UHGV virus genome: UHGV-0149711
Strand: one strand, 5' to 3'
Length of the DNA: 19,578 bases
Source: a virus
A model generated the notes under the pieces. That model was not told the origin of the DNA. It did no database searches and saw nothing but the letters and a program-made list of their open reading frames with translations. Made by a program: the position numbers and the translations under genes. Shown here piece after piece: positions 162-18,777 of this stretch (positions are counted from its first letter, which is position 1; every line of letters starts with the position of its first letter).

Positions 162-252
162 CTGCTCTCCAATGACTAGTCTAAAAACTAGTATTAAGAC
201 TATCACTTAAATAAGTGATATTGGTTGTCTGGTGATTCAGGGGGCCAGTCTA
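1..252 (-). mobile_element. IS2 insertion sequence, left end (partial; continues beyond window start)
   Basis: The reverse complement of 170-252 reads TAGACTGGCCCCCTGAATC...CAATATCACTTA(T)TTAAGTGATAGTCTTAATACTAGTTTTTAGACTAGTCATTGGAGAGCAGATGATTGATGTC, which matches the IS2 left terminal inverted repeat and orfA leader as I recall them. The element boundary is at 252/253. Confidence 0.88.
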
Positions 253-2029
253 CCGGGGTTTTTACCTTCAGTGTTTCATCCGATGTGCTTATTGTGCCCG
301 TGGCAGCATACACAACAGACCATCTATGTGATGTATATCCTAATACAGTCGTATTGTCTGCATCAGGCATGAATCCATTGTACCCGCCAATCTTAAAGTC
401 GCCGCTTGGGTTTCCTGGTGACAATTTACCGTCATAACTCGATAATGTTACCCCCTTTGTACCAGTAGTCGTAGTGAGCAGGATACCTGAATTAGTGGCA
501 CCAAGAATCTGTATTTCACTATTATCGTTGCGTAAGTCCTGAACAGGAGCCTCTAGTACAGATGAGGTAATTTTCCATTTTGTGTCAGAATAAAGCTCGG
601 CCGGAGATGAGTCGTCAGGCTGAATAATAAGCGCCCCTTTACCACTAGAACGCCTACGGCATCCAGTAACGTTTTTCTGGTCTGGGTCCATATTTGAGCT
701 AACAAGAACCCCGTCAAACTGGGATATGCTTTCATAACTGTTAGCACCTTGACGCTGTGCGTTCTCAGTTAGATACACCCATGACCAGTCAAAGTGGTTT
801 TCATAGGTTTTCACATTAAAATCAATCTGATACGGACGAGTACACAACTCGCCAAAAAATCCACGGAAGTGTATATTACCTGCCACTGATGTATCACTGT
901 TCACCGTCTTAACAATACGCACTGCGCATGGCACGTCTGCAGGCCAAGTACCTAGAGTGATATTCTCAGCGTGACCACCAAATACGCGCAAAGTGTCGGT
1001 AGACTCAATCCAAAAGCTACAATTTCCCGTAGCATGATGAGGGTTATATATATGGATGCGCGTATTATTATTATCGCCACTGACGCTGCGTTCAAAATAA
1101 AACCCGCAGTCTACACGCTCAAAGTTAGGGTTCATAATTGAGTGGTAGTATGAGCCGCTGTTTTCACCTGATACTGTTGGTCCCGGCTTGAATTTCAGTC
1201 CGACTTTTACTCCCCTTGCGCGTGGATTCTCCATTACACAAAATTGCTGTGACACACGCATGGTGACCTGAGATTCGTCTTCAGGAGCAATGGCGTAGGC
1301 AATAACGTCAGAGTAGTTATCTGGGTTAATTACTACAGGATTGATTATGTGGCAGAAATCATGGCTCATTCTTAAACATGTAATTCCCGAGTCTCCTGCT
1401 ACGATTGTTGTACCAGTAAAATCAATATACCGTGTAGATGTAACATCCTGTGTATACGAGCCATCGAACTTCATTACAAGACTTTGTGTTATGCGATATC
1501 TCGCACCTACTCTCCCTGTTAATTTACCAAAAGGTATTCCTTCGAGCCATGCTAATGCTGATAACATAGATGTGGTGTCGTCAACAATCCCATCACCAAT
1601 TGCCCCAAACTCTTCAAATGTTTTAATGGCTGTCGCCCGATGCGCTATCTGATCAATTGTTGAGCCATATTTTGTTAGACTCTGCCTTAGCTGATCAGGA
1701 TCATACTTCAGCACGTTTGGAAAATAGAACTGCTGTGCACCATACGCATCATAAACAGCCATAGAATGACCTTGCACCGTAACAAACTTGGCAATCTGTC
1801 CGTTATATACAGGGTAACCAGCAGAATTGATAATGATTGGTTGCGAAACAGGAATGTGAGATCCGTCTTCGTTCTCTACATAAACCTGAATCTGGTTTTC
1901 AGGATTTACCGGGTCAGTATCAATTTTACCGATATAAATTTTGCCATTGGCTACGGCTTTAAAAGAACGCGCCATAGTGAAGAGTTGCGAAGGCATACTC
2001 ACTACAACATTGGCTGTAATGTCTGTCAT
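203..2029 (-). CDS. Tailspike protein (P22 gp9-type N-terminal head-binding domain, divergent receptor-binding domain); 3' end truncated and fused to IS2
   Basis: The N-terminus [17 protein letters not shown]...[20 protein letters not shown]...[14 protein letters not shown]...NVLKYDPDQ is the conserved P22-family tailspike head-binding domain. SD (AGGAG) lies 8 nt upstream of the ATG at 2029. Native coding stops at about 254; residues [16 protein letters not shown] and the stop are encoded by the IS2 terminal repeat. Confidence 0.88.
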
Positions 2030-2193: not shown

Positions 2194-4587
2194 CTATTCT
2201 GACAACGCATCAGACTTAGCCCCCTGAGTCAGGGCGTTAATGGCCTTTTGTGCCTGCTGCATGGCTTTCTCGAACGCTGTTGATCCGCGTGGGGTATTTG
2301 CCATTCGGAGCATTGCATTTCTGAATGGTTCGCTCTCATAGGCGCGAGTAAGAAGTCCGTAGCTTACTGCTGCGCCAGTTGTCGCCGGGTTCATTGCCGT
2401 CCCATATCCGATAATGAACGGGATGGTTTGCTGCCCTGTTGGTGTTGTTACTGCCGCTTTTGCAGCCTGTTGCGTTGATTGCAGGTAGCTTTTCAATCCT
2501 TTCAGATAAGCAGCATCCTGACCTTTAAATGTGATGCCAGTCTGGTTTTGCAGGATGTTAAGCTGTCGAATGAACTGGTCAGGGGAACCACCTGATTTCT
2601 CCATCGCCTTTCCAATGATGCCATTGCGCATTTGCGCCCTACCAACACGACCAACTGAGTTATACAGAGTCTTAATTTCCGATTTGTTCTTGCTGAATAG
2701 CATGTTGTTGACAACTTCCGGCGTCAAGTCGCCTTTCATGAGAACATTCTTCAGCCTGGTATTCTTTAGTTTCGCCGCTTCGTCAGCGTAGACGGCATTG
2801 GCCTGCTGATATTTACGGAGAGTATCGTTGCCAAGATTCTGACCAATGGCACCATTGATATCGTCTGTCATCGCCTTGTAAACGCGCTGAATGGCAGCAT
2901 CGGAACGGTTTGGTAACACTGGTCGCTCACCCTTCACGTCCATTCTGAACTGGCTGCGCAGGTCGCTTAATTGCTTCAAATCCAGATTTACCGGACCATC
3001 AGGGCCAGCATTGCGAACAAGCTCATCACGATATGACTGAAGTTTTGAAATAGTCTCGTTATCAGCGACCTTACCAAGCTTCTGCAGGTTAGATATTTCT
3101 GTATCAATCTGCTGAATTGCTCGTGCAGGCTGAATGTTTACTCCTGCCATAGCATTCTGAACCTGCTCCAGTCGATTACCTGCAGCACGACGAATTCCTG
3201 ATGTTTTCGCTTTAAGGCTGTCAATAACAACAGCTGGATCATACTCACCGAATTTATCAGCAAATCTCTGCACCAACTGGCTTCTCGCTTCCTGTTGCGT
3301 TGCTCTCATTCCGCTTGTGCCGGCCAGGGGGATATTTTCCGCTGTCGTCTGCGCCATTTTCCCGACGCGGGAAGTAGGCTGTAACAGGTCTGTGGTGTGC
3401 AGAGGAACTCCTTCACGCTCTGCAAATCTGATAGCCTGCTGCGCTTCTGGCGCAATAGCACCACGAACGCCACGATAAGCAGCACCTAATCCACGTCCGG
3501 CAGCGTTAATAGCACCGCCAGCCAGCACACCAACGCCTAAATCGGTGGCGAGTGCTTCCGCATCATCTTTCGCACTATTTGCAGCAAGTGATCCAACTGC
3601 GTTTTCAGCGAGAAGACGAGTTGCCCCCTGAGCAATTCGCCCAGCAAGTGTTGGTGCCTGTGCTGCCGCTCTCTCAACGCCAGCAGGAGTGAGGTAAGGC
3701 AATGCTTCAGCAAATACCCTTCCCTCTGTCGTTTGTGGAGTCAGCGCGCCTTGCTGAAGGCCAAAGTCCTGCTCTAATCCCTGCGTTGTTACTCGTGGCG
3801 CTGGTTGATATGTACCATCGCCAATGCCGAGTTTACCGCCAGCCCAAGCCGCCGCGCTTGTTACAGCATCAGTGAGTTCAGCAGGTATGTTCGCTACGTT
3901 GATTCCTGCCTGTAGTAAGCCGCGCCCGGTTTCAGCAAGTCCATTACCAAGGTCAGACATTATTCCGCCTTGTTGCTGAACAGGTTTCGGTGCGACAGAA
4001 CTTACGGGTTGAGGTGGCTGCTGACTGGCTGCCTGCTGCTCAATCTGAGCAAATGGATTATTTGGGTCTGACTGCACACCTGATGCCGATACTTGTTCGG
4101 ATGACTGTACTTCCAGTTGTGCAAACGGGTTGTTAGGGTCTTGCTGAGGATGTACCTTTGCAGAGGTGGCGCGCTGTTCGACTGTTGAGTCTGTCACCGG
4201 GTCACCCGCCCATTGAGCAAAGCGATCATCAACGTAACCGCGGCCTTCAGGTCCTGGCGTATATTCACCACGCTTTGCCTTCATAACGTTGCCGGGACCG
4301 TCGTGATAAGCCTGAAGAGCGTCACGCCAGTTACCAAACTGCTGGTACATCTTTGCCAGATAGCGCGCGCCAGCGTCAGCCTGATATTCGGGGTTTTGCA
4401 TTTGCTCATCGGTATAACCCATATCACGCCATGTCCCAGGCATGACCTGAGTCAATCCTACAGCCCCGGCGGAGCTTACTGCGGCAGGGTTGTAAGAAGA
4501 CTCCTTGGCACCCAGTGCAGTCATCAACCCTTCTGGCACACCGTAACGTGCGCCAGCCTGCTCTAACAAATCACGGTAATTAGCCAT
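2194..4587 (-). CDS. Ejection (injection) protein, gp16-position, with N-terminal family-1 lytic transglycosylase (SLT) domain
   Basis: 797 aa. The N-terminal motifs GAKESSYNP...AGAVGLTQVMPGTW...Y are a canonical SLT signature. It starts at a TAAATG junction with the upstream ejection protein gene and is the last gene before the tailspike, as in P22 gene order. Confidence 0.85.
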   Translation of the reverse strand: MANYRDLLEQAGARYGVPEGLMTALGAKESSYNPAAVSSAGAVGLTQVMPGTWRDMGYTDEQMQNPEYQADAGARYLAKMYQQFGNWRDALQAYHDGPGNVMKAKRGEYTPGPEGRGYVDDRFAQWAGDPVTDSTVEQRATSAKVHPQQDPNNPFAQLEVQSSEQVSASGVQSDPNNPFAQIEQQAASQQPPQPVSSVAPKPVQQQGGIMSDLGNGLAETGRGLLQAGINVANIPAELTDAVTSAAAWAGGKLGIGDGTYQPAPRVTTQGLEQDFGLQQGALTPQTTEGRVFAEALPYLTPAGVERAAAQAPTLAGRIAQGATRLLAENAVGSLAANSAKDDAEALATDLGVGVLAGGAINAAGRGLGAAYRGVRGAIAPEAQQAIRFAEREGVPLHTTDLLQPTSRVGKMAQTTAENIPLAGTSGMRATQQEARSQLVQRFADKFGEYDPAVVIDSLKAKTSGIRRAAGNRLEQVQNAMAGVNIQPARAIQQIDTEISNLQKLGKVADNETISKLQSYRDELVRNAGPDGPVNLDLKQLSDLRSQFRMDVKGERPVLPNRSDAAIQRVYKAMTDDINGAIGQNLGNDTLRKYQQANAVYADEAAKLKNTRLKNVLMKGDLTPEVVNNMLFSKNKSEIKTLYNSVGRVGRAQMRNGIIGKAMEKSGGSPDQFIRQLNILQNQTGITFKGQDAAYLKGLKSYLQSTQQAAKAAVTTPTGQQTIPFIIGYGTAMNPATTGAAVSYGLLTRAYESEPFRNAMLRMANTPRGSTAFEKAMQQAQKAINALTQGAKSDALSE

Positions 4588-5919
4588 TTACTGCCCCAAA
4601 GATGGAAGATATCCGTAGCGATTAATGAAGTCGATTGACAGCTCGGGGTGCTGCTTCAGGTAATCTATAGAAGCCTGAGGCGCTTCCACTCGCTTGATAC
4701 CGTTTTGCTGAACGTACTTACCAACCGCCTCATTACGCTTCTGGTTGAGCGTGTTCAGGATGACGCCAGCGTTGCGACGAAAGGACTCCTCGCTCTGCGA
4801 GTTCTGCAGCGAACCAACAGCCTGGTCGAGCTTTTTGCCCTCGGCATCAGAAAGTGCGCCCATGCCTCGCATGGCCTGAACCGCTGTCAGGTATGCTTGT
4901 GATTTAAAGGTATCAAGTCGTGCCTGAGTGTCTGCAGCCTGTGAGCCTGGAACGTTGGGGATTACTCCACGTAAGCCTGTAATGCTCTTAAGTGAAGGAG
5001 AACTAACGATATCGTTCAGAGTGAACATGCTGGTTGTGAGGGTGTTGATGCCGTCTTTGTAGCCATCATTTAGCGCTTGCTGCTTCTGCTGCAACTGCTG
5101 GTTGTTGGCTGCTATGCGGCTCTGTATTTCCTGGCGCTTCAGGTCGTTAGTTTCTGCTGATAGCATCCGGTCAAGGCGCTTATTTTCGTTGTTAATGCGG
5201 TTTGTTTCTGCGTCCAGATTAATGCGCTGCTGACCTAAATTCGCCTGGATATCTTGTCCGCGCATTGTGATTGCCTGATTCCGAGCGGCGGTTTGCGAAT
5301 CCAGATCCTGACCGCGCATGGTAACCTGGCGACCCTGCATTTTATCCTGTAGGTCAAAGTATTTTTCGGGCCCGAGACTGTTCATCCCCAGGTGATCGAC
5401 AAATTCGCCGAACTGCCGCGGGTTCTGTTGGTACATCTGAGCGACGTCATGAGGATTAACGCCAACACGAGCTAACTCACCGGCGTTGTTTTGCAGCCAT
5501 GATTGCATTGCTTCTGGAGAAGATGACGCAAGACGTGCGCCAGCCGCTAATGTACCGATAGAATTACGCTGGTCTTCATCAATGAATCCCATGCCTTTAC
5601 GAACGGATTCAATCTGGTCTGGATATTGAGTAGCCAACTGACGCAAAGCACCGCGATCACCAGAAGCATAAGCATTAGCGTATGCCTGCTGAAATTCTTT
5701 CTGCCGCTGAGCCTGCTTTTCCTGCTGAAACACCCCTGCAATACCTGAAAGACCTTGCAAAGCAGTCAGCCCAACATTGTTAGCGCCTGAACGCTCAATA
5801 TCATTGTTCTGCCTGATAAGCTGAAGCGTATTGCCGATGTCATTTACGCTCGGAGCGTTTGAGTTGACGCCGCCGATACCAGCTAACAATCCGCCATTTG
5901 ATCCTTGCCAAGTAGCCAT
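4588..5919 (-). CDS. Ejection protein, P22 gp20-like
   Basis: 443 aa, Gln/Ala-rich with internal repeats (TMRGQD x2). It sits between the gp7-like and gp16-position genes, with its stop directly abutting the next start. Confidence 0.78.
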   Translation of the reverse strand: MATWQGSNGGLLAGIGGVNSNAPSVNDIGNTLQLIRQNNDIERSGANNVGLTALQGLSGIAGVFQQEKQAQRQKEFQQAYANAYASGDRGALRQLATQYPDQIESVRKGMGFIDEDQRNSIGTLAAGARLASSSPEAMQSWLQNNAGELARVGVNPHDVAQMYQQNPRQFGEFVDHLGMNSLGPEKYFDLQDKMQGRQVTMRGQDLDSQTAARNQAITMRGQDIQANLGQQRINLDAETNRINNENKRLDRMLSAETNDLKRQEIQSRIAANNQQLQQKQQALNDGYKDGINTLTTSMFTLNDIVSSPSLKSITGLRGVIPNVPGSQAADTQARLDTFKSQAYLTAVQAMRGMGALSDAEGKKLDQAVGSLQNSQSEESFRRNAGVILNTLNQKRNEAVGKYVQQNGIKRVEAPQASIDYLKQHPELSIDFINRYGYLPSLGQ

Positions 5920-5928
5920 GATTACCCC

Positions 5929-6621
5929 TTAAAACAACGAGCCAAGCAATCCGATACCAGCACCAATGCCAGCGCCCCAAGGTGTTGATGTTCCCAAAAG
6001 GCTGGCAAGACCTGCACCGGCAATCGCACCAGATGTTCCGCCACTAATTGCAGTCTGAAGACTTGATGGTTTATTGGCATTAGCAGCGGCAAGAGCTGCG
6101 CTTTGCTGTGCAATGCTGCTCATGTTGTTGGCGTATGTCTGCCCGGCGTTTGCCTGACCTTGCAGCGCACCAAGCCCAACGTTTGCCAGATTGTTGTAAT
6201 TGCTCATCTGATTTGATAACCAAGACTGACCGAGTGTCGGCGCGATCGTAGCCAGTTGATTGCTTGTGGCTGTCGAACCAAGTCCACCCGTCGCCTCCGC
6301 AGCAGCAAGACTCTGGTAACGCGCCTGCCCTGCAAGGTCTTTATACTGCTGAGAGTTGTAATACTGATTAAGTGCCTGCCCCTGACCTTCTAAACTGGAA
6401 AGGTTCTGAAGCTGGTTAACATACTGCTCCGCAAGAGGCGTGAACGGAGCAAGGTTTTTCATGATCGTCTGCCACTGCTGATTTTGCAGATCTGCAGCAT
6501 ACTTCTGAGCTTCTGCTGCATACTTTGCGCTTTTATCAGAACTGCCACCTTTCCCGCCTTTTTCAGGGCAATAAGGTTCCTCGCCGCGCAGCTTTCTGCC
6601 CAGCTTAAATGCATATAACAT
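5929..6621 (-). CDS. Ejection protein, P22 gp7-like
   Basis: 230 aa. The N-terminus MLYAFKLGRKLRGEEPYCPEKGGKGGSSDKSAKYAAEA matches P22 gp7 as recalled, with a Gly/Ala-rich C-terminus. Position is conserved. Confidence 0.88.
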   Translation of the reverse strand: MLYAFKLGRKLRGEEPYCPEKGGKGGSSDKSAKYAAEAQKYAADLQNQQWQTIMKNLAPFTPLAEQYVNQLQNLSSLEGQGQALNQYYNSQQYKDLAGQARYQSLAAAEATGGLGSTATSNQLATIAPTLGQSWLSNQMSNYNNLANVGLGALQGQANAGQTYANNMSSIAQQSAALAAANANKPSSLQTAISGGTSGAIAGAGLASLLGTSTPWGAGIGAGIGLLGSLF

Positions 6622-6623
6622 GG

Positions 6624-7079
6624 CTATCTCCCGTGATTCAGGAAGTCGATTAGTTCTTCGCGTGTGGCGCTGTAAAAAGTCACGTCATCCACGCCCTTGA
6701 AGTATTTCTTGATGGTTCCGACACGCTTAAGGCCAATCATTGCGCAGTACATCTGCCCGTGGCGGAATTTGCGTGCAGCGAACGATGTGACGCACTGAAC
6801 GGTGGTGTTAGTCAGAATGTATCGCCAGAACGCCAGCCCGATCTCCTTGCTGAATCCACGAACCTCTGGCAGGTACATGGCGTGGCAATCGAATGTCAGC
6901 GGCTGAATCTCCTGATAGTAAACAATGCCGCCGAACTGCCCGTGCACGTTCACCTCAAAGTAACGGCATTCAGGTTTGTAGTCGTATCCATCACCGTTGT
7001 TGCTCCCGGCGATAATGTCAGGGTGATTTCCTACGGCTTCTATCAGGTCGATGTTTCGCGTTGGTTTGAATGTAATCAT
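6624..7079 (-). CDS. P22 gp14-position protein
   Basis: 151 aa ORF between the needle gene and the gp7-like gene, translationally coupled (1-nt overlap with the upstream gene). Assigned by synteny; I cannot recall the P22 gp14 sequence to compare. Confidence 0.65.
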   Translation of the reverse strand: MITFKPTRNIDLIEAVGNHPDIIAGSNNGDGYDYKPECRYFEVNVHGQFGGIVYYQEIQPLTFDCHAMYLPEVRGFSKEIGLAFWRYILTNTTVQCVTSFAARKFRHGQMYCAMIGLKRVGTIKKYFKGVDDVTFYSATREELIDFLNHGR

Positions 7080-7780
7080 CAGTCAATAAGCCCATGTAAT
7101 CTAAGTGCCGTTTCAAGCGCCAGAATACGCTGCCGCGCCTGCTGCAAACCTGTAGCGAGTGCTGCGACTTCGGATTGTGTGTACGTAGTGCCGACTGTGT
7201 ATGACTGGTTAGCGTTGAATGAGCCAAGAAGAGGTGTACCTGTGGCTGCAGTCCATCCGGTATTTCTTGCTCCAATAACCTGAATTCCATCAACTGAATA
7301 TGATGTTTTTACATCCAGCGGTGACGCAAGAGACTGCGATTCGGTTACGGTTTTCGATACGTAATCACTCTTAATGTCAGATACATCGCTTTCTATGCCA
7401 TCCAGTCTTTGGTCAACAGTGACCAGATGCGCCTGAATAGCGATAACCTCATCCAGCAAGTAATCAACATCGCTACGCAGTACGACTATCTTCCCTTCGG
7501 CGGTTGTTAACCTGACCTCAAGGAGATTTATCGCTTTTGTGTTTGCGGTGATTCTTGCATCGTGGTCAGCCAGTTCGACATCCTGTTCATCGTTTTTCAC
7601 CTGAGCATCGTAAGCGCCCTGTCCGGCCTCGTTGGCCTTGTTAGCCACGTTACCAACATCAGTACCCTGTGCGATAACGTAAAGCAGGTAAGACTGGCTG
7701 AATATATTGCGTGGAAGGATTGATGTATCGAGCCGCGTCGCCTGCACAATAACAGGGGTGTTGAGATTCGAATCAGCCAT
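7079..7780 (-). CDS. Tail needle protein (P22 gp26-like)
   Basis: 233 aa. [43 protein letters not shown]...[24 protein letters not shown]... and the C-terminal ...LRLHGLID match P22 gp26 as recalled. Confidence 0.92.
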
Positions 7781-9198
7781 TACTCAATCCTTATCTGGCA
7801 GCCTGACAGAGTGACAGGTGACTTCGTGATAACGCGCAATTTGAAGCCGACATTTTTCCTGATGCGCCCGACTCGCTTCCACAAAACGCGTTTGTCGTAA
7901 ACGAACGGTTCATTCTGTTCAATCATCTGCTCACGTCCGTAATTTATGCCGTCAGTGGTTGCAGAGAGGAACAGGCTGTCGGCGTACTGAGCAACGCCAG
8001 TTGAAGATTCAACTTCAAGGTCGAAAACTCTGGCGTTATCCGCTTTGAACAGAGGAGTAAACAGCAGGTGTTCCTGTTGCTTGTCGTACTGGCTGCTGAT
8101 ATCGAACTGCAGTTTCCCGGTAACAGATTCCAGCTTATCGCCGCACGTTATCTGATTGCCTTCGTAAATGAAGTCGATAGCGCGGTACACATCGTCATAC
8201 AGGCCTGTTTTCAACACACACCATTGCGGACCATTGGCGCTTGAAGATGCGTCGTACACCAGAACATGGCGCGGAAGATGGATAATCAGCAGCTCATGCG
8301 CATCAAATCGCAGAGACTCCATCACGCCATCAGCCAGTTCATCAGCAGTGTAGGAGCGTAGTATTTTCTCAATGCTCGCGCTGGCGATTGGTGATACCTG
8401 ACCGGAGCCGATGATGTACACAGACGGCGCACCTGTTGCCGGATTGCTGATGAACGCATAAGAATCAGCGAATGGCGTTTTGCAGTAAGTCCCGGCGATG
8501 CCTTTTTGCACCATCAGTGATGGCTGTGCGACATACAAAGCAGCACCAACGGTAGTTGATCCTGTCAGGGAAAAATATTCAATCGTCGATGAACCAAAGC
8601 AGACGATGAAGTCTCGCCATGTCCCGATACCGATGATACCGTCAGGCTGAGACTCGGCACGATATTGTGCGCTGTATCGGTCAGGATGTGATTCGTCTTC
8701 AAGGTCAGTGATAAACCATGAATCAGTGCCGTCTTTTGACCACGCATAACGCCCACGTAAGCGTGTAATGTCGCGGACTGAACCTAACTCATACTGCGTG
8801 AATCCGCTGTCTGTAGGCCAGTTTGAGACGGTTTTAACCGTACCATCATAGCGATACTCGACCAGTTGACCATTAACGCCTACAGCCTGTGATGTCCGAC
8901 CATGTGCCATTGATACGCGACCACTTCCGGCAACGTCACCGACTTCACTTTCGCCTTTGTAGAGCTTGCCACCACACACGCGATAAACAGCATTCTGCGC
9001 CATGTTGTACTCGACACCGCGCGATACACCATTCACATCAGAGCGTTTGGCAATGCCCGGGAATGAGCGAAGATATCCGCTGCTGTTGAGGATTTCTTTG
9101 GGTGTAGCCAGCATATTCACTGGCAGATAGTCGATATAGTCGGCGTTTCGAAAGTCTTTGCCGACACCTTTCATAAGCGGAAGTTGCTGAATCGGCAT
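7780..9198 (-). CDS. Tail accessory/hub protein (P22 gp10-like)
   Basis: 472 aa, the same length as P22 gp10, in the conserved position between gp4 and gp26, with 1-nt overlaps on both sides. Confidence 0.88.
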
Positions 9199-9698
9199 TA
9201 TTCGCTCCCGTTATCGCAAGGTTCCTTTCGGTGGAAGTAATTCCAACCGTTCCACTTCGCCAACTGATTACCGCTACCAACAGGCATACGGTTTGGATAA
9301 CCGGACTTACATTTAGCGGCTTTTGCTCTGTCCATTGCAGACAGTTTGACGAGTCGCTCTTTCCCGTATCTGGCAGTGGTTATAAGTTTTGCAGAGGCTT
9401 CCAGCGCATAATCTGGAGCAATGCGGCATGCAAGGTTGAAAATGACGGCATTGATAGCGTTATTTGATAAACCGTGCTCATCGCCAGGATCCGGAGCGAC
9501 ATCTGCATCAGCAAAAATGTAGCCAACGTTGATCCCAGGTGACGCATCACCGCCAAGCCATTCAGCCATCATCATTTCAAGGTCGTTGACGCTGTCTTCC
9601 ATAGACTGCGGTTCGACATCGGTTAACGTGGCATTTGATGCAACACCGAGCTTACGTAATGCTGCAAGGACTAAATCACCCTTCGTTGTCAGGTTCAT
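9198..9698 (-). CDS. Head-tail adaptor / tail accessory protein (P22 gp4-like)
   Basis: 166 aa. ...[42 protein letters not shown]...HGL...[14 protein letters not shown]... matches P22 gp4 as recalled. Confidence 0.9.
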
Positions 9699-9906
9699 CT
9701 GCTGCCGCCTTAGGTTTTCGACCAGGCTTTTTACGCTGTTTTTCTTCTAGCTCTGGCTCTGCAACATCCTTCAAAAGGTCATCAGGATGTGAAAACCAGC
9801 CAGCATCCAGATATTCCTGAAGCTCTTCGGCTTTCACGATTTCAAAGTCGTATCCAACGCCTTTCCATTCCTTCATGTCTCCATGACGAAAGATCATGTG
9901 TGTCAT
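9676..9906 (-). CDS. Small acidic hypothetical protein between the coat and gp4 genes
   Basis: The track ORF 9676..10086 overlaps the coat gene; I trimmed it to the internal ATG at 9906, which has a GGAGA SD 5-6 nt upstream and lies just after the coat-gene terminator hairpin. 76 aa: [38 protein letters not shown]... Confidence 0.5.
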
Positions 9907-9919
9907 GCTTGTCTCCAGA

Positions 9920-9942
9920 TAAAAAGGGAGCCGAAGCTCCCT
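9920..9942 (-). terminator. Putative rho-independent terminator/attenuator immediately downstream of the coat gene
   Basis: The minus strand reads AGGGAGC-TTCG-GCTCCCT followed by TTTTTATCTGG: a perfect 7-bp GC-rich stem, a TTCG tetraloop and a T-run, starting about 8 nt after the coat stop codon. Confidence 0.6.
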
Positions 9943-9949
9943 CTGGTTA

Positions 9950-11245
9950 TCACGCGGTCTGATTAGGCAGACCAACACCAATTGCCTCTGGTCGTACAGC
10001 ACATGCTGAATACCACACAGCAATACGGCACTTACCAGACAGAGTGTTGATATCACCCTGCGTTGCGAAGATGCCGTTAACACCAATGCCAGGAATGCTG
10101 AAGGAAGAAGTTTTCATGCCAGCAAACAGTTCATGGGTTACCGGGATAGGCTGAGACAGCAGTCGGATTGAGTCATCAGCCCAGAACACGTTAGCGGTGG
10201 TTGTTGCCACGTTCAGAACATTTACCGGAGTGGCATCAGCAAGAGAGGTGTTTACGTTAGCGTAAGCCTTCTCTTCTTTTGTCAGTGACGCGTCATCCAG
10301 TGCAATCGGCTTCGGCGTGATTTCGATGTGAGTACTATCGATCACACGGGTGATTGAGAAAGTCGCATCATCAGTCAGCAAGTTCTTCGCCATCTGAGAC
10401 AGGAATTTCACACCAGTGAAGCTGATTTTGTCGCCGCGCTTAAACCCGGTGGTGGAGGATACGGTCACCGTTGCAACACGGTTGTCGACGTTCTCTTTGT
10501 TACCATCGGTATCAAGGGTGTATGCCTGCGGCTTAAACTTCTGCGCACCAGAAACAGTTACACCAGTAGCGGTTGACTTGGTAACTGCCGGAAGTTTCGG
10601 TGAGCGAAGAATTTCATCAAAGCCAGCAATCTGACGCTGAATAGTACCGTTGCGATACGCGTCTTCAGTAACGCGCCCGAAGATGTCACCATCTACCAGG
10701 TCGCGGCCTGCTTTGCGGTAATCGTCAGGGTTCAGGAAGTAACTGATGCCCATATCGCGGTTTAGCTCACGGGAGAACATCAGGCGCTCTGCATCAGACA
10801 CAAAATCCCAGCCAGACAGGCCAGTAGATGGACCAATTGCGCGGGTATCGTGAACAACAAGTGAGCCCATTTCGGTTGCCTGTTTGGCAATTGCTGACTC
10901 AATGTTATTCGCCAGTTTTTTGGCGGATGCCTGGATGCGGCGACGGTAAGAACGCTCATCACGCAGGTCATCTGCACGAAGCTCGAAGAAATCGTTATCC
11001 GGATCGCCCATGTTGCATTTCACGGACAGCTCCAGAATCCCGGTTGCGTTGCCAGTTAAATCCCAGCCAGTCTGAGTTGGCGCTTCCTGCTCAACAGGCA
11101 TCCACACGGTGTTGCTTGAACGTTGCATGGATTCTGCCGGAGGGGTGTATTTTGTCACTTTGGACGCCATTGGCGTCAGGTTCTGGACGGTTTCGATGAT
11201 TTCATCCAGAGCATACGTGACCAGTTGACCTTCATTTAATGCCAT
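9950..11245 (-). CDS. Major capsid (coat) protein, P22 gp5-like
   Basis: 431 aa. MALNEGQ...[25 protein letters not shown]...RQIAGFD..LRSPKLP..TKSTATG.TVSGAQ.FKP...[35 protein letters not shown]...[13 protein letters not shown] matches P22 coat protein along its whole length as recalled. Confidence 0.97.
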
Positions 11246-12156
11246 TATCGAATTCCTTTATTCAGTTGCGCCTTGAGCTTGCGGTATGTCTCTACATCCC
11301 CTTTGTTTGCTGCCGCTTCCATCTGCTTTTCAATCGCAGAGATATTTGCAGCAACAGCGTGTCCCTGAATGGGTTCATCAGGTAACGGGGCTTCTGAAAC
11401 AGGCTTGGCTCGAGGCTTGAGAGTTAAACGTTCTGACAGTCGAGTGAGTTCAATCAGCGCGGATTGCCCGTCCATCGCCAGCAACTGGCGTGTTTTCTCA
11501 GGATTAGCACCAAGGTGATACATGAGAGCAGCGGATTTCTCCGGGAAGAGGCGCATGATGTCGGCACCGACTGCTGGCGGCACCAGTTGCATGAATGCAT
11601 CCTCTTTCTCCTGATAGTCAGGGATATTGAGCTTTTCCGCTGCATCGTAGTGCTTACGGGCGGCCTCGACGTATTGCGCTGATTGCTGGGTGAACTCCTG
11701 AGTTTTGCGGCCCTGCTCGGCGACAGCCTGGCTTCGTGCGTCCATAGCCTTGATCTGCCATTCACTGTTTGCCTGCTGGAAGGCCGCCAGTGCGCGGCTC
11801 TGGTCATAGTCGTACTTAGCCAGTGCGTCTTCGGAAAGATAATCGTTAGGGTCTGGTTGTTTTGGTAACTCAGGGTTCACCCGCAGGTGCTCCGGCAATT
11901 CTCCACGCTTAACCGCTTCCATCTGCTGCTCAAGCTCACGCTGGCGTTTGCGTTCGATGCGGCGACGGGCAAATTCAGCATTAGTTGCCGGGTCTTGTTT
12001 TGGTTTCTCATCGTCTTTCAGGACAATCTCGAAGCCTTCTTCCTGACCTGCGTTGTCGTTGGCATTATCGACAACTAAGCCATCAGCAGATGCCGCTGCA
12101 TGATTGCCGGGCAGGGTTAATTCTTCAGAAGCCTGAATGTCGGTGGTTTGGTCCAT
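11245..12156 (-). CDS. Scaffolding protein (P22 gp8-like)
   Basis: 303 aa (the same length as P22 gp8), highly charged and helical in character, located between portal and coat, with a 1-nt overlap with the coat start. Confidence 0.9.
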
Positions 12157-12169
12157 GATTAACTCTCTC

Positions 12170-14335
12170 TTATTGAGGTGTCTCGGCTACTCCGCCGGAG
12201 GGGATTTGAACTTGACGCATAAGATTCGCGAAATCCATGCGTTGTGAATGAGTCTGGTCTGCATCTTTAAGAAGCAGCTCAGCGTTAGCACGAGCATCTT
12301 TGCTGCGCTGTTGCTGGAATTGACCTACGAGCTTGAGGTACTCACGCAGTTCTGCCTGCTTGTCGAGGTCCATATTGTTGAAGATTTCTGCAATCTTCGC
12401 GGCGTTGAGTTGGTTTTGAGCTTCAACCTTGGCAGCTTCAACCTGAATCTGCGCCTGTTGGTTCTCTGCCTTGAGCAATTCAGCCTGACCTTGCAGAAGG
12501 ATACCCTGCGCCTGAATTTGCTCTGCTGATGGCTGCTGCGGCTGCTGTTGCGCCTGTTGTACCATCTCCATCTCTTCAGGTGTTTCTGGTTTCTTCAGCC
12601 CCATCATCACCAGTTGCTTGTTCGCGTACTCTCGCATCATCTCGACGCCTTTACCGTCAAGCAGCGTGAAGTATTGCAGCATCAGCATCTGGAACTCTGG
12701 AGTACCTTGCGGAACCTTGGTGAGTAACTCCTGAATCTCTGCGCGGTTCTGTTCCTTCATACTCTGGAAGGATGGTCCAACGTCCGTATAACACTCATAG
12801 CGACCACGAATGTCGTTGAGTGTGACCACATTGCCGGACTGGTAATCTACAACTTGCGCGTAGAGTTGAACGTCTTTCTCGCTTCCGTCTTCAAGAGTCA
12901 GCGTTACATGGCGAGGAACGTCATAAATATCGTTGACCATTGAGGCATAAATCTCGCCATCACGTCGCATTGCGGTAGCCAGGTTATCCTGAAACACGTA
13001 TGTCTCAAGGTCTGCCCGCATGTTCAGTTGATTGACGGTATCGAAAGCGACCTGACCATTTGCCGCCTGCGCATCCACGCCAAGACTAGCCACCTCTTTC
13101 ACTGCGTTGGTGGCTGCCTCAAGCATGTAAGCGTTGGCTTGCGGCACTTCAGGGTTTTCCATGTAGGAGATTGGACCAATCGGCAGGTCGTTACCGTTTT
13201 CATCGGTCCTGTTCTGCAGATAGTACGGATAGTCATCATTTCCACCGTACATGTATTCGTAGCCTTCGATTTGCTCAGGGAAGAAGGTCGGTTTCTTCTT
13301 CGGTGAACGAGCAACAATATCGGCGTTGAACGACATGATCATGTTACGAAGGCGTTGACCGTCTTTCGTCAGCCTTACCACTCCTTCATAGCACTCCTTG
13401 TCACCAGCGAATGACCATTCACCATACACTGGAACGATTGGAATATGCTCTCCGGCTATCTTCTCGCGGTCTTTCAGTATCTGCGTACAGGTGATGATCG
13501 ACTTATACACACGCCGACGCTTCACCTTGCGCTCTGCTACCTTAATGAATCCACGATTAGCCAGGTCGTCGATGACGTCTTTGATATCCTGCTGGTAATA
13601 GCTTACCGGCTCACCTGTCAGCGGGTCGCGGTAGATGAAGACTTTCTCTTTCTTCTCTTCGACCTCGTAATACTCAGCGACGTAGACGACATCATTCGAT
13701 ACCCACGGAAACAGCCATGTATCGTTCGGATTCTGGAAAGATGGCAAGGTGTCCGGATCAATACCGTAATCCTCTGCGAACTCTTTCCAGCCATTGCGCG
13801 ACAAGGCGTTAATCACCGTGCAGTGCTTAGCGTCGCTCTTATCCATCTGCTTGCTGTTGGCGTCCCATATGACGTGTGAGCAGGCTTCATGGATTGGCAG
13901 GCGTCTGATTACCTGGTTGTTGCTTGTTGGATCGTTGTCTTCGTACTGTGTGACCAGACGCCATGCACCAACGCCGGACTCTATCTGCTCACGAACGCCA
14001 ACGTTAACGGCAATTTTTGCCGTGTTATGGCGCATATCGGTACGATACATTCCCATCAACACATCGGCAGCATCAGGATTAGCTCCGTCTTTTGGTCTGA
14101 AGAGAACGTCGATAGGGTTACGGCGCATCTCTGCGACCAGCTTCCTGACCACCGGGCGAACAACATCGAATTGTCCGCGATATTGCAGGGTAGTGTAGTT
14201 TGATAGCCAGTCATCCCATTGCGACACTCGGCTAAAATACAGGTCATTTGTCGCCTCGGTTCTGGCTTCATCGCTCGCCATCCAGTCCGCGTCAAACTTA
14301 CACAGAATGGAATTGAGTCTGTTTTCGTCGGCCAT
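12170..14335 (-). CDS. Portal protein (P22 gp1-like)
   Basis: 721 aa. The N-terminus [66 protein letters not shown]... and the C-terminal Gln-rich barrel segment match P22 portal as recalled. Confidence 0.97.
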
Positions 14336-15835
14336 TTAAGTTCTCCGTGCGATGGGCCTGATTGGGGCTGGTATCTTTTTCTCTTTTGGTTTTTTGATGT
14401 CGCGCATCATTTTGGCGAAGCGGCGCATCATGTATGCATAGCGAACGGCGGATAGCACGTCGTCGTTAAGCTTGACGATCTTCCCGTTTTCATCACGGTG
14501 ATAGAGGCGGAACTCCTCAAAGAATGGCTCACAGGTGTTGAATACTTTGAAGCGACCATCAAGCATCATGTCGCGCAATTCAGTGATTCCAGGCTCCACA
14601 GCGTTACCGCCATCAGGCCATGTCGCATGCTCCTGCAACATCATAAAACCAGCGTCCGCGTACTGCCCTTTGAGCTGCTCACCGCCGCCCTTCTCATGCT
14701 GGTTTCCGTCATGAGGCCATGCGGTTGGCACTTTATGCGCCCATGATTTAACAGCTCCCCATGCCTGAACAGCTGTTTTTTCTTTCGCCTTCCACACGCG
14801 TGAAACGTAGATTGTGTCTGCGTCCTTATCCCACCAAAGCTGAACCTGCGCCTGTGGGTGATCCCATCCAAAATCCATCCCACCAATTACGTAGAAGTGA
14901 TCAGGACACTCGAACGGCTGACACTTAATAGTCTCTTCCGGTATCTGGAAGATTCGACCGCTACCCATCGTAGGAATACCGCGAGCACGCGCCTCTCTCT
15001 CATGCTCGGGATAGGATGCGATGATTTGCTCTTTCTGCTCGTCGGTGTAGTGCTCAGCGTCATAGATGGTCATGTTGACCACTTTCTGCGACTTGCTGGG
15101 ATTCTTCAGGAACTTGGTAACAACGTCAGACATCCCCATCAGCGGGGTAAACGTCAGAATTGAGAATTGCCCGTATTTGTTGGTACGGGTAAGGCCTTCG
15201 CCATAAATGCTGTATGGTGGCTCTTCGTCAAACCACACGCCGTGGATTGTGTCACCCTGCCAGCGAGCGCGGCCTTGCGAGTATGGTTTGAAGTAGCAGA
15301 TTGAAATGCCATCTTCAACGCCATCAGCCGTGTGATGCTTAACCAGAAGATGATCAACAAGGTTCGGAAAGAAAGGAGACTTCTTCCAGCTAATGATGTC
15401 TTCTTTAGGTATGGAACCGTAGCCTGGCTCATCATTCTCTTCGATACGACCACACAGGATGCGTTGAGTCGTTTTGGTTACAGTCTCGTTTGTCTCGCCG
15501 CCAATCCAGAAGACAACAGGCTCATAGAAACGCTTACCTTTCCACTCCCCACCATATTTACCATCAGCCGGATAGCCTTTTGTTCCCGGATAACGCCCGG
15601 TAAGGTGAAACGCGACTTCAGCAGCCCCAGTAAATGACTTACCAAGCTGGTTCCCAGCCATAAAACAGCGCTCTGGATAGTCATGCCCGGCGTCGATGAA
15701 CTCACGCTGTTTGCTGTATGGCGTAAATTCATATAGCAGGTGTGTGTTCCGGTAGTTCTCTTCTTCTTCGAGTAGCTCGAGCAACTCGATTTGCTCTTCG
15801 TCGCTCAGGTTATCAAGAATCGCGTCCAGTTCCAC
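14336..15835 (-). CDS. Terminase large subunit (P22 gp2-like)
   Basis: 499 aa. [37 protein letters not shown]...GNQLGKS (Walker A)... is near-identical to P22 gp2 as recalled. Its start overlaps the 3' end of the small-terminase gene. Confidence 0.97.
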
Positions 15836-16301
15836 GGTTGAATAGCTCCTTGATACGAGAGCGTCGCTTATCGCGATCTCCCTTATCAGGTGTCACGTCT
15901 TCAACTTGCGACTGCTCTTTGAGGCCCAAATCACGGGCGATGATGTTAGCGTTGAGAAGGTCAGCGGCAGCGCCAGAGAATTTCTGGTCGTAGATGATGT
16001 CTTCCGCTCGTGATGTGACGTCAGAAAAACCTTCCATTGACCGGAAGGTTCCCCATGTTTGCCTGGTGATATCAAGGAAGGTACACAATCCTGAAATAGT
16101 CATGGCTCGCATCTTAGGGACATTAGCCTTAATTATTTCTCCCTGATATGAAAATACCTTACCCTCCCATAGCGGGTTATCATCAGCCCACTCGAAGTAT
16201 TCACAACAAGCAGCCCACAGCGCCTCAGGCGATTCGAATTTAGGATTTCGCCCATGACTACTGCGGGCCTCCCAAAATCGGTTGCCCTTTGGTGCTGCCA
16301 T
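15813..16301 (-). CDS. Terminase small subunit (P22 gp3-like)
   Basis: 162 aa. [38 protein letters not shown]...[59 protein letters not shown] matches P22 gp3 as recalled, with a divergent central segment. SD AAGGGA upstream. Confidence 0.95.
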
Positions 16302-16396: not shown

Positions 16397-16590
16397 TACT
16401 TAGCTCCTTTCTGCTTGCCTGTGTTTGATGTCGTTTCAGCAGCAGCCCCAGAGCAATTAACGCTACCCGCAACACCATATCCATAACCAGTCTTGAAGAA
16501 ATTATTGCCAGTAAATTGGTTAACAATCTTCCCGCAGCACGGGCAGCGTTGGCATTGGCAATAAGGGGATTGATTATTCCAGTGATACAT
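16396..16590 (-). CDS. Small Cys-rich / Gly-rich hypothetical protein (64 aa)
   Basis: I trimmed the track ORF 16396..16665 to the ATG at 16590, which has a strong SD (AGGAGA, 6-nt spacer). Product: MYHWNNQSPYCQCQRCPCCGKIVNQFTGNNFFKTGYGYGVAGSVNCSGAAAETTSNTGKQKGAK. It has no transmembrane segment and carries a CxCxxCxCC cluster. Confidence 0.4.
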   Translation of the reverse strand: MYHWNNQSPYCQCQRCPCCGKIVNQFTGNNFFKTGYGYGVAGSVNCSGAAAETTSNTGKQKGAK

Positions 16591-16963
16591 CTTGTTTCTC
16601 CTGAATGAATGGCAGGAAGTGATTAACCATCCTGTCCAGCATGTAACAGTACGTCTCGTTGGCATCTTCAGGCCTTGTCGTCACGCCGACATCAGAGCAA
16701 ACGTAAAAGCAGACGTGGGCGCACTCATGAACGAGCGTAGCGATCTGCTGATCGAATACTCCAATCAGATAGCATCGCTCACCCGTATCAGTGTTTTCAT
16801 AGTTGCTTGCAAACCCAAGATTGAATGGCTTCTCATCCCCGCTGCCGCCAAGGAATTTATCAGCGTGCTGAAACTGTTCTCTGGTTGTTGCGAGGTAGAC
16901 ATGTGCACTTTGAAACAGCGGAATGGTGAACGCCGGGAGTTTGTGCCATTTGGCCTTAGCCAT
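16574..16963 (-). CDS. Putative zinc metallopeptidase (HExxH motif), family unassigned
   Basis: 129 aa with HECAH at residues 79-83 (nt 16715..16729), preceded by hydrophobic residues (IATLVHECAHV) as in SprT-like or ImmA/DUF955-type peptidases. SD GGAG is 8 nt upstream. Its ATG is 1 nt after the stop of the upstream 80-aa ORF. Confidence 0.55.
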   Translation of the reverse strand: MAKAKWHKLPAFTIPLFQSAHVYLATTREQFQHADKFLGGSGDEKPFNLGFASNYENTDTGERCYLIGVFDQQIATLVHECAHVCFYVCSDVGVTTRPEDANETYCYMLDRMVNHFLPFIQEKQDVSLE

Positions 16964-16964
16964 A

Positions 16965-17207
16965 TCACACTCCGGTGGTGAACAGGTCTAACGCTTCCTT
17001 CGATTTACGCACCGCTTCGATAGTTCGGGTCGTGATATCTGAATTAGCGCCACCTGACTGGAAGTGAATTTTGAATAGCTCAAGCTTCAGCTCGTCAGTG
17101 CCAATGAATTGAAATGCTTCTTCTGCGGCTGCGTTCTGGTTCATGACCAGTTTGTAAATCTCTAACTGGAATTTCTGTTCTTCAGTCATGGGAATAATCT
17201 CTGCCAT
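16965..17207 (-). CDS. Hypothetical small protein (80 aa), first gene of the small-ORF string upstream of the terminase
   Basis: MAEIIPMTEEQKFQLEIYKLVMNQNAAAEEAFQFIGTDELKLELFKIHFQ... SD GGAG is 7 nt upstream. It is tightly coupled to the downstream HExxH ORF. Its size and position recall the small ORF I remember upstream of P22 gene 3, but I cannot verify this. Confidence 0.5.
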   Translation of the reverse strand: MAEIIPMTEEQKFQLEIYKLVMNQNAAAEEAFQFIGTDELKLELFKIHFQSGGANSDITTRTIEAVRKSKEALDLFTTGV

Positions 17208-18339: not shown

Positions 18340-18777
18340 TCATCGAAGGCATTGCGTCCTGATGTATTCCTGCAGGTAGTTAACCTGCGCGGTTATCTTG
18401 TCGATTCCACTTCGGAGACGGTAATAATTGAGTTCAGCATCTGCTGTAAGTCTTGGGCTTTCTCCATCGCCCATGCCGCTGGCTCCGGTCGTTGACTTTG
18501 CACAGGTGGCGGCGACTTGCAGGCGCTTACGACCAGCAGAAACATCAGCACGGAGACTTTCGATAGTAGCGTTAGCATCAGCAAGCTCCTTTGTGTATCT
18601 GGCGTCGAGTTCTGCTACGTCACGTTGACGCTTCTGCATGTCAGCGATTGTGGATGCGGCCTTATCTCGCTGCTCTTTGTAGGCGATGGCGTTATCACGG
18701 TAATGATTAACAGCCCATGACAGGCAGACGATGATGCAGATAATCAGAGCGGGGATAATCGCGGTTACTCTGCTCAT
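18340..18777 (-). CDS. Rz: Rz i-spanin (inner-membrane spanin subunit)
   Basis: 145 aa. [37 protein letters not shown] matches the lambda Rz N-terminus (N-terminal TM, coiled-coil periplasmic domain). The C-terminal half is divergent. It overlaps the R stop. Confidence 0.92.
18393..18584 (-). CDS. Rz1: Rz1 o-spanin (outer-membrane lipoprotein) embedded in Rz in the +1 frame
   Basis: 63-aa ORF lying wholly inside Rz. It has a signal peptide ending in a lipobox (VVSA-C) and a Pro-rich mature region ([14 protein letters not shown]...), which is the classic lambda Rz/Rz1 architecture. Confidence 0.8.

Follow-up and report, generated by a model that had tools for sequence, protein, structure and literature searches.

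A predicted lytic transglycosylase head on a P22-type gene 16 ejection protein

Does a phage with P22-type ejection genes carry a wall-cutting domain on its third ejection protein? P22 gp16 is present in virions, leaves them before the DNA and is needed for DNA entry (PMC10883804). According to a 2022 review, P22-like phages form no internal core stack, unlike T7, and lack a lytic transglycosylase domain (PMC8954989). We analyzed the viral genome UHGV-0149711, whose whole stretch of 19,578 nucleotides is referred to as the window. Its initial annotation had read the product of the gene in the gp16 position as an injected protein with its own peptidoglycan-cleaving domain. This reading was supported at the sequence level by an SLT domain match, the alignment of Glu29, the match to PHROG 770 and the gene order. 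We consider it probable that the gene product is the third ejection protein of an E. coli phage or prophage of the P22-like (Lederbergvirus) type, composed of a lytic transglycosylase head, a linker and a gp16-family body, and that it cuts the wall during ejection. The features of the locus are listed in Table 1.

Table 1. Coordinates of the gene, its parts and other features of the window
Feature	Position	Strand	Evidence
Gene-16-position CDS, 797 aa, third ejection (E-) protein of P22-like type	2194..4587	-	PHROG 770, E=3.8e-240
Predicted N-terminal lytic transglycosylase domain (SLT, GH23 family-1 type), aa 1-125; Pfam match aa 7-110 = nt 4258-4569	4213..4587	-	PF01464, AF2, Foldseek
Glu29 codon, predicted catalytic acid (E-S motif)	4501..4503	-	Aligned with Slt70 478 and T7 gp16 37; invariant in 58 SLT sequences
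Q/S/P-rich linker, aa 126-207, predicted disordered, between SLT domain and gp16 body	3967..4212	-	AF2 pLDDT, composition
Motif copy 1, DPNNPFAQLE, aa 150-159	4111..4140	-	Mean column identity 0.93 vs 0.64 in spacer
Motif copy 2, DPNNPFAQIE, aa 174-183	4039..4068	-	Mean column identity 0.98
gp16 body, aa 208-797, Sf6 gp13 type	2197..3966	-	~95% DNA identity to Sf6 gene 13; AF2; hydropathy
Exchange block vs Sf6, VSe13 and Gally: gp20 C-terminal ~60% (about aa 180-443) and gp16 aa 1-204 (SLT, both motifs, most of linker)	3976..5382	-	Identity profiles
gp20 homologue, 443 aa, predicted periplasmic-tube ejection protein, upstream neighbour	4588..5919	-	PF16928 Inj_translocase, E=6.3e-68; PHROG 2534
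gp7	5929..6621		
gp14	6624..7079		
Tailspike	203..2029		
gp4 homologue	9198..9698		
Holin/endolysin/Rz cassette	18340..19557		

Gene setting and the gp16-family body

The ORF proposed for the gp16 position was real. On the minus strand it ran from an ATG through 797 codons to a stop, and its ATG directly abutted the TAA of the gp20 homologue. The late genes followed the P22-like order of gp14, gp7, gp20, this gene and the tailspike at the end of the virion operon, so the gene occupied the slot of gene 16 between gp20 and the tailspike. As the initial annotation had stated, the product was longer than P22 gp16 (797 vs 609 aa; PMC8954989). The DNA of the gene was 97.2% identical to that of phage IME10 and about 98% identical to that of 52 complete E. 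coli genomes.

The body belonged to the gp16 family. PHROG 770, 'DNA transfer protein', matched aa 108-797 over nearly its whole profile (positions 3-666 of 668), and proteins 98-99% identical to the product had a precomputed match to PF26808 (Phage_P22_gp16). AlphaFold 2 (AF2) confidently predicted an all-helical domain at aa 375-797, with block pLDDT values of 80-98 (mostly 88-98) at aa 381-710 and aa 741-790 and a dip at aa 711-740. Gly/Ala-rich, moderately hydrophobic segments were present at aa 345-370 and around aa 724; no classical transmembrane helix was detected in the protein at a Kyte-Doolittle mean of 1.6 over 19 residues. A PDB sequence search with the body returned no solved relative, and Foldseek with the full-length model returned nothing below E=0.1, only generic helical bundles. 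Three proteins (P0231, P0234 and P0236) were considered as possible cases of the same body with a different N-terminal 'cargo' module. They were rejected, being in-frame deletion fusions with gp26, gp7 and NinG; the prophage that holds P0234 is decayed, its portal gene being truncated, and host genes lie next to P0234.

The N-terminal SLT domain

The initial annotation had named an SLT domain as the head of the protein. The Pfam search gave a strong match of PF01464 to aa 7-110 (E=2.9e-25; 88.5 bits, the curated cut-off being 21.3 bits; profile positions 2-110 of 117). The two proposed family-1 motifs were found, AKESSYNP at aa 27-34, which fixes the codon of Glu29, and GLTQVMPGTW at aa 44-53 (nt 4429-4458). 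The third family-1 motif, AYHDGPG, was located at aa 93-99 (nt 4291-4311). In phmmer alignments, Glu29 was paired without gaps with the catalytic Glu478 of Slt70 and with Glu37 of T7 gp16, and the Slt70 alignment also spanned the E-S, GLxQ and AYxxG motifs. Seven residues (E29, S30, G44, P50, T52, Y94 and G97) were invariant across an alignment of 58 diverse SLT sequences, and Q47, A93 and Y118 were at least 90% conserved in it. Motif II read GLTQ (aa 44-47) and motif III AYHDG (aa 93-97), with Y118 as the downstream Tyr, in agreement with family 1. The proposed assignment of residue 29 as a conserved catalytic Glu therefore held.

The AF2 model of residues 1-125 had block pLDDT values of 87-98 for aa 1-110 and 74 for aa 111-120. 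All 32 Foldseek matches of this model at E<=0.001 were lytic transglycosylases or T7 gp16, the best being Slt70 (1qte), LtgA, Slt, MltD/E/C/F and T7 gp16 (7k5c_B). The modeled domain was all-helical with a goose-type-lysozyme-like fold. At the sequence level, it was 29-36% identical to the N-termini of T7-group internal virion protein D, PRD1-group transglycosylases and P1 Sit. An NCBIfam search gave only sub-threshold matches to cellular transglycosylases, and it contains no model for the body.

SLT domains are also carried by some endolysins, and the PHROG matches included families labelled 'endolysin'. Both would fit an auxiliary lysin that works as the lytic cycle ends, or on nearby cells once lysis has occurred, instead of during DNA delivery. 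We give this explanation hardly any weight. The 'endolysin' families turned out to be internal virion or tape-measure-type proteins of 1000-2000 positions, the SLT domain forms part of a virion ejection protein, this protein lacks a signal or SAR sequence, and the window contains a complete, separate holin/endolysin/Rz cassette. Since sequence and hydropathy revealed no N-terminal signal-peptide-type hydrophobic stretch in the protein, and since the window encodes its own lysis cassette, virion delivery is the only evident route of the domain to the wall.

Paired linker motifs and co-inheritance with gp20

The linker was mostly predicted with pLDDT below 50, with short helices at aa 134-145, 154-162 and 180-186. 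The 85 residues of aa 131-215 included 16 Q, 11 S and 10 P. The initial annotation had described a duplicated DPNNPFAQ(L/I)E unit in this Q/P/S-rich linker, visible as an imperfect DNA tandem repeat of about 60 bp. The peptide pair and the composition stood, with a corrected span: the second copy ends the pair at 4039, so the span is 4039-4140 and not 4045-4140. The two 10-mers matched at 9 of 10 residues, a level reached in 0 of 200 shuffles of the whole protein (maximum 8) and 0 of 2000 shuffles of the linker (maximum 7).

The DNA tandem repeat was rejected. The motif starts were 72 nt (24 aa) apart with an unrelated 14-aa spacer between the copies, and the two 30-nt units shared 21 of 30 bases. 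For 7 of the 9 identical residues the codons differed, synonymously, at the third position. With the minimum score set to 30, Tandem Repeats Finder gave no array, and a seed-based repeat finder found only a 16-nt match with 75% identity. Variation in copy number, which the initial annotation had expected among homologues, was also rejected: every full-length homologue listed, from five genera, had exactly two copies, 24 aa apart and at fixed positions. Averaged over alignment columns, identity among the homologues was 0.93 for the SLT domain and 0.93-0.98 for the motifs, as against 0.64-0.67 for the spacer and linker. The pair consists of conserved peptide motifs and is not a DNA repeat array. 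No mention of the motif was found in the searchable literature.

Identity profiles showed that the module with the SLT domain and both motifs is part of a larger exchange block. On both sides of the block, the DNA was 93-95% identical to Sf6, VSe13 and Gally. Within it, Sf6 gave at most a short match of 71%, and VSe13 and Gally gave none. Sf101 was 98.6% identical from gp7 through the end of the block, and the SLT/linker module was 99.7% identical in DNA to Sf101 gp13 (gene nt 1-618). Among 5426 E. coli genomes, the SLT module was present in 70, the gp20 C-terminal part in 69 and the joint block, counted at coverage of at least 80%, in 66. A K. aerogenes prophage with an SLT-carrying gp16 had a gp20 whose last 40 aa were 88% identical to those of the window, vs 3-12% in SLT-less phages. 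The SLT/motif module is co-inherited with the gp20 C-terminal region.

The same module was found in the isolated phages IME10, Sf101, Huey, Dewey, APC_JM3.2 and phiKp_30 and in prophages of Cronobacter, K. aerogenes, Kosakonia and Enterobacter. It remained a minority form: it was present in about 1.3% of complete E. coli genomes, and a scan with a local HMM built from the SLT alignment found the domain in only 3 of the 115 full-length gp16-family representatives examined, a point against the wall-cutting explanation. An alternative is that the module came in recently through mosaic recombination as a functionally neutral passenger and will disappear again. All 70 E. coli copies were at least 99% identical, suggesting recent spread, and SLT-less variants of the same body were much commoner, as the gene was matched in 366 genomes and the module in 70. 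Against a passenger stand the homologues from Cronobacter, Klebsiella, Kosakonia and Enterobacter, which were 72-86% identical overall and kept the whole module, and the column identities given above, which were far higher in the domain and motifs than in the spacer and linker. The more distant podoviruses IME_EC2, Kc166B, P0381 and P0364 also had an SLT domain at this position. A neutral passenger is thus very improbable.

The co-inheritance hints at a gp20-gp16 contact like that between T7 gp15 and gp16. It also bears on the possibility that the main role of the SLT domain is structural, within the assembled ejectosome. The N-terminal domain of T7 gp16 sits on the gp15 tunnel, with residues 157-228 forming a 'molecular tape' (PMC8954989). 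The inheritance of the SLT/linker module with the gp20 C-terminal region in 66-70 E. coli genomes, and the gp20 ends of the SLT-carrying and SLT-less phages, would suit such a role. However, the residues of the catalytic motifs were strictly conserved across genera, which argues that activity is under selection, and the adjacency of the gp20 and gp16 genes means that co-inheritance may reflect linkage alone. We regard a mainly structural role as unlikely. It overlaps the explanation of a wall-cutting ejection protein and excludes nothing in it.

For the motifs themselves, one doubtful but possible role is docking. Both might be short linear motifs by which the SLT domain is tethered to the C-terminal region of the gp20 tube in the periplasm, in which case they would correspond, in the P22 type, to the 'molecular tape' of T7 gp16. 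If so, the gp20 C-terminus and the gp16 SLT/motif module would be a co-adapted functional cassette, passed on whole when P22-like phages recombine. The ejectosome architectures of P22 and T7 would then be tied together, and the motifs would be a new class in phage ejection proteins. In a more remote variant, the motifs would bind a host periplasmic protein; its one basis is the likeness that we take NNPF to have to the TolB-box 'ENNPW' of colicin E9.

Proposed role and comparison with known systems

The wall-cutting ejection protein remains our preferred explanation. Most likely the protein, once ejected, cuts peptidoglycan locally in the manner of T7 gp16; we infer its packaging, ejection and enzymatic activity together, from the analogy with T7 gp16 and P22 gp16. 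It would be packaged in the capsid and exit via the portal/tail channel after adsorption. The SLT domain would refold in the periplasm and cut glycan strands locally, with Glu29 as the single catalytic acid. The predicted cut is at the MurNAc-GlcNAc bond, with a 1,6-anhydroMurNAc product. Opening of the murein mesh would allow the gp7/gp20/gp16 trans-envelope conduit to form and the body to engage the inner membrane.

Related phages whose protein has nearly the same body but no SLT domain (Sf6, VSe13 and Gally) are viable, indicating that the SLT domain is dispensable for the basic ejection mechanism. In addition, another wall-degrading activity has been reported in gp4 of P22-type virions (PMC5380687), and the window has a gp4 homologue, so the SLT domain could be redundant. 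Its activity would probably be conditionally important, for example with a highly cross-linked wall, rather than always essential. The same applies to T7, whose gp16 N-terminal domain is required to bring the genome into the cell if the peptidoglycan has a high degree of cross-linking (PMC8954989).

The searchable literature contained no published experiment on this protein or a close homologue and no description of a P22-like gp16 with an SLT domain; the main comparative papers, Casjens & Thuman-Commike 2011 and Casjens & Grose 2016, lay outside that scope and may mention one earlier. RefSeq already calls this protein type 'lytic transglycosylase domain-containing protein'. The name has spread to thousands of 665-aa homologues without the domain, which is an annotation problem. 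Contrary to the 2022 review, a subset of P22-like phages and prophages appears to have a T7-style wall-cutting head on gp16. Near-isogenic bodies with the domain (IME10 and the window) and without it (Sf6 and Gally) offer a natural experiment for testing when a virion transglycosylase matters.

An ORF of IME10 encoded a protein 99% identical over the full length, in records without a CDS annotation over the gene, and the top E. coli prophage proteins under the RefSeq name were 98-99% identical. Sf101 gp13 (911 aa, 'transglycosylase' in GenBank) had the same SLT/linker module on another gp16 body, with 45% protein identity overall. The reverse was seen for Sf6 gp13 (665 aa). Its DNA was 90-100% identical over the body (about aa 234-797; ~95% overall), whereas its 93-aa N-terminus was unrelated and had no Pfam domain. 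P22 gp16 (609 aa) had no N-terminal Pfam domain either. Sf6 gp13 and P22 gp16 have the same operon position as the window protein and a Q/P-rich stretch before a conserved 'MSDLG' core, which is common to all three, but the adjoining gp20 C-terminal region is of a different type in Sf6 and P22.

Among other podoviruses of the P22 supergroup, Murrayvirus IME_EC2 gp26 and Kosakonia phage Kc166B had SLT domains 50-63% identical to that of the window, in the same slot after gp7-like and gp20-like genes. They also had two copies of a related N-x-F-(A/D)-(Q/E)-aromatic motif. Their copies lie on either side of the SLT domain (at aa 3-8 and behind it), whereas both follow it here. The bodies were different (1007 aa in IME_EC2). 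In Kc166B a separate 310-aa ORF encodes the SLT part.

T7 gp16 (internal virion protein D) likewise has an N-terminal SLT domain on the third, largest ejection protein, and the T7 ejection genes have the same order of small, middle and large. The catalytic Glu is equivalent (E37 in T7, E29 here), a non-globular segment follows the SLT domain in both, and the T7 chain 7k5c_B was matched by the predicted structure. The SLT domains were about 24-35% identical. Similarity was undetectable beyond roughly residue 190, where the window protein continues as a P22 gp16-family body (PF26808/PHROG 770), and T7 gp16, at 1318 vs 797 aa, is nearly twice the size. The T7-type PHROG 342 matched aa 3-190 only and not a T7 C-terminal body of ~1100 residues, and PDB sequence and fold searches gave no T7 gp16 match to the body. 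The window protein thus lies outside the T7 gp16 family, and by analogy it would work in the manner of the T7 gp16 N-terminal domain.

Late operon and neighbouring genes

On its minus strand, the window carries the late operon of a phage or prophage of the P22-like (Lederbergvirus) type. Among isolated phages, IME10 of E. coli comes closest (96.8% identity, 83% of the window covered).

Genes of the late operon, identified by Pfam and PHROG scans
Gene	Position (nt)	Strand
Holin	19234-19557	-
Endolysin	18774-19250	-
Rz	18340-18777	-
Small terminase	15813-16301	-
Large terminase	14336-15835	-
Portal	12170-14335	-
Scaffold	11245-12156	-
Coat	9950-11245	-
gp4	9198-9698	-
gp10	7780-9198	-
Needle gp26	7079-7780	-
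gp14	6624-7079	-
gp7	5929-6621	-
gp20	4588-5919	-
SLT-gp16 ORF	2194-4587	-
Tailspike	203-2029	-

The tailspike retained the P22-type head-binding domain (aa 1-113, PF09008), and its top PHROG label was 'tail spike protein with colanic acid degradation activity'. IME10 resembles the window only from nt 1691 (1-1690 unmatched) and so lacks a match to the receptor-binding part of the tailspike, indicating that the host-range module was exchanged independently of the ejection genes. The gap between gene 16 and the tailspike (2030-2193) is only 164 nt, like that of Sf6. The immI region (sieA, mnt, arc, ant), which P22 has at this position, was absent from the gap, and a scan of it gave no terminator-like site and one weak promoter-like site. 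The interval from the lysis cassette to the terminase genes holds genes (17464-17994, 16574-17207) for a KilA-N domain protein (176 aa), a DUF2560 protein (80 aa) and a PHROG 1365 protein (129 aa). Between gp4 and coat, a mechanically listed 136-aa ORF with a TTG start (9676-10086) overlapped the 3' end of the coat gene at 9950-10086, and its match to PHROG 1175 (72 positions) was limited to aa 61-134. The real gene there is therefore probably about 75 aa, with a later start.

The lytic transglycosylase domain and the gp16 body

The ORF in the gene-16 slot was as the initial annotation had described it: 797 aa from an ATG, longer than the 609-aa gp16 of P22. The ATG directly follows the TAA of gp20, and a GGGG run lies just upstream. 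The described lytic transglycosylase (SLT) motifs were in place, AKESSYNP at aa 27-34 (containing Glu29) and GLTQVMPGTW at aa 44-53, and a further motif, AYHDGPG, was found at aa 93-99. The Pfam SLT profile matched aa 7-110 (E=2.9e-25). The top PDB sequence match of the N-terminus was E. coli Slt70 (E=2.3e-11). Because this alignment was gap-free up to that point, Glu29 aligned with Slt70 residue 478, the established catalytic glutamate. In the T7 gp16 alignment, Glu29 stood opposite residue 37, named as catalytic in a review (PMC8954989). Among 58 aligned diverse SLT domains (33-99% identity to the query), E29, S30, S38, A42, G44, P50, T52, Y94 and G97 were invariant. With the profile matched and the glutamate conserved, the proposal of an injected protein with its own peptidoglycan-cleaving activity was supported. 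A mainly structural role for the SLT domain is rather unlikely.

An AlphaFold 2 (AF2) model of aa 1-240 had block pLDDT values of 87-98 at aa 1-110 and 74 at aa 111-120. Foldseek searches with this model gave significant matches exclusively to lytic transglycosylases (Slt70, LtgA, P. aeruginosa Slt, MltD, MltE, MltC and MltF) or T7 gp16 (ejectosome and core structures).

The rest of the protein is a gp16-family body. PHROG 770 ('DNA transfer protein') matched aa 108-797 (E=3.8e-240), and the precomputed Pfam family on 98-99%-identical proteins was PF26808 (Phage_P22_gp16). In a full-length AF2 model based on 113 family representatives, aa 375-797 formed a confident all-helical domain (block pLDDT 80-98 at aa 381-710 and 741-790, lower in between at aa 711-740), and aa 105-364 were of low confidence. 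Neither PDB sequence search nor fold search found a solved relative of the body. SLT-gp16 had neither an N-terminus resembling a signal peptide nor a strongly hydrophobic helix.

We infer that SLT-gp16 is most likely packaged and later ejected via the tail. Its SLT domain would cleave peptidoglycan locally, allowing a gp7/gp20/gp16 conduit to span the envelope, and its body would engage the inner membrane. By analogy with T7, SLT activity would be expected to be important with a dense or highly cross-linked wall. What the analysis itself establishes is the identity of the domain, the conservation of the motifs, the predicted fold, the synteny and the mosaic structure. The lysis genes form a separate cassette in the window, and a role of the SLT domain as an auxiliary lysin is highly improbable.

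The duplicated motif and the gp20-C/gp16-N block

The peptide duplication noted by the initial annotation was confirmed, with DPNNPFAQLE at aa 150-159 (nt 4111-4140) and DPNNPFAQIE at aa 174-183 (nt 4039-4068). The best 10-mer match was 9/10, against shuffle maxima of 8 (whole protein, n=200) and 7 (linker, n=2000), far above chance. The accompanying claim of a ~60-bp DNA tandem repeat was rejected: the units start 72 nt apart with an unrelated 14-residue spacer between them, 21/30 bases are alike, 7 of the 9 identical codons differ synonymously, and TRF detected no repeat.

Every one of the 96 listed homologues with an SLT domain and a length of at least 700 aa carried two copies 24 residues apart (sources: E. 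coli, Cronobacter, K. aerogenes, Kosakonia and Enterobacter), starting at aa 150 and 174 or correspondingly shifted where N-terminally truncated. Over 64 distinct N-termini, mean column identity was 0.93 and 0.98 in the motifs; the spacer had 0.64 and the Q/P linker 0.67. AF2 placed a short helix at each motif within a disordered stretch. A related motif also occurred twice in more distant proteins that have an SLT domain and occupy this gene slot (NIFDQF and NVFDQF in IME_EC2 gp26; NMFAQY and NLFAEY in Kosakonia phage Kc166B), but with one copy before the SLT domain and the other after it. In two further distant podovirus proteins (P0381 and P0364), an F-x-Q-like position aligned after the SLT domain. 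Residues 157-228 of T7 gp16, after its SLT domain, are a gp15-binding 'molecular tape' (PMC8954989). Given this analogy and the motif conservation, putative docking of the motifs on gp20, the predicted periplasmic-tube protein, is a reasonable hypothesis. The motif had no mention in the searchable literature.

In SLT-gp16 variants of 877-886 aa (P0216; P0226, L014 5001-7643), a ~90-aa module without a Pfam match directly follows the second motif (consensus GNIDxxNRPxVxNxDGSISTVRSMS...IPTVSDDGRIMSDDEAI...TGKHLGxF). A gp16-family protein of 1043 aa (P0358) has this module as well, close to its C-terminus and upstream of an InPase domain (PF18823, E=5e-56). This suggests that additional cargo domains can be accommodated in the gp16 family.

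The gene is a mosaic. Over nt 1-618 (aa 1-206) it shared 99.7% identity with the beginning of Sf101 gene 13, whose 911-aa product, annotated 'transglycosylase', has a different body. From gene nt 721 onward, 60-nt windows were 90-100% identical (~95% overall) to Sf6 gene 13, whose 665-aa product has no Pfam domain. The window differed from the SLT-less Sf6, VSe13 and Gally in one contiguous block (3976-5382), comprising the C-terminal ~60% of gp20 and gp16 aa 1-204; Sf101 was 98.6% identical to the window from gp7 through the end of this block. A survey of 5426 complete E. coli genomes found the SLT module in 70 (each copy at least 99% identical), the gp20-C part in 69, and the joint block, with coverage of at least 80%, in 66. 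For the final 40 residues of gp20, identity to the window was 88% in a prophage of K. aerogenes whose gp16 is SLT-bearing (and 76% identical), versus 3-12% in the SLT-less Sf6, VSe13, Gally and P22. Thus, the SLT module travels with the gp20 C-terminus, which may reflect plain linkage or co-adaptation. That the module is a neutral passenger is very improbable.

Relatives, database names and known systems

GenBank and RefSeq give the 665-aa Sf6-type gp16 (VSe13 gene 013, L004 2222-4219; P0237 and P0240, with clusters of 1304 and 2252 members) the name 'lytic transglycosylase domain-containing protein'. Neither Pfam nor NCBIfam gave an SLT match for P0237, for which PF26808 was the only precomputed domain. 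The name appears to have spread from SLT-bearing relatives via the common body. IME10 has an intact 797-aa gene-16 ORF (L003 3001-5394; NC_019501 31064-33457) whose protein is 99% identical to the window's, and 3/3 IME10 records annotate no CDS over it. In P0231, P0234 (loci L007 and L008) and P0236, gp26 needle, gp7 or NinG is fused in frame to the gp16 body. The junction in P0231 and P0234 is in the Q-rich linker, just upstream of a 'GG(I/F)(M/I)SDLG' core, and P0234 lies in a decayed prophage with a portal gene truncated to 231 aa and an adjoining host LysR gene. We rejected these fusions as functional variants, as they resemble deletion products.

The SLT call itself is not new. RefSeq names the E. 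coli relatives 'lytic transglycosylase domain-containing protein', Sf101 gp13 is 'transglycosylase' in GenBank, and PHROG 21143 covers the SLT module. This analysis adds the invariant motif pair and the joint inheritance of gp20-C and gp16-N as one block. Among the best 150 P22 gp16-family matches, 3 of 115 full-length 50%-identity representatives had an SLT domain, so this architecture is in the minority among family members, although clustering at 50% identity conceals N-terminal variants. In the searchable literature, P22-like phages are stated to lack an SLT domain (PMC8954989), or gp4 alone is given as the P22 virion-associated lysin (PMC5380687). SLT-gp16 belongs to the P22 gp16 family plus Pfam SLT. 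By analogy it would work like the N-terminal part of T7 gp16, but it stands outside the T7 gp16 family because its body is unrelated. It is another putative virion-delivered lytic transglycosylase on a podovirus ejection protein, already annotated automatically.
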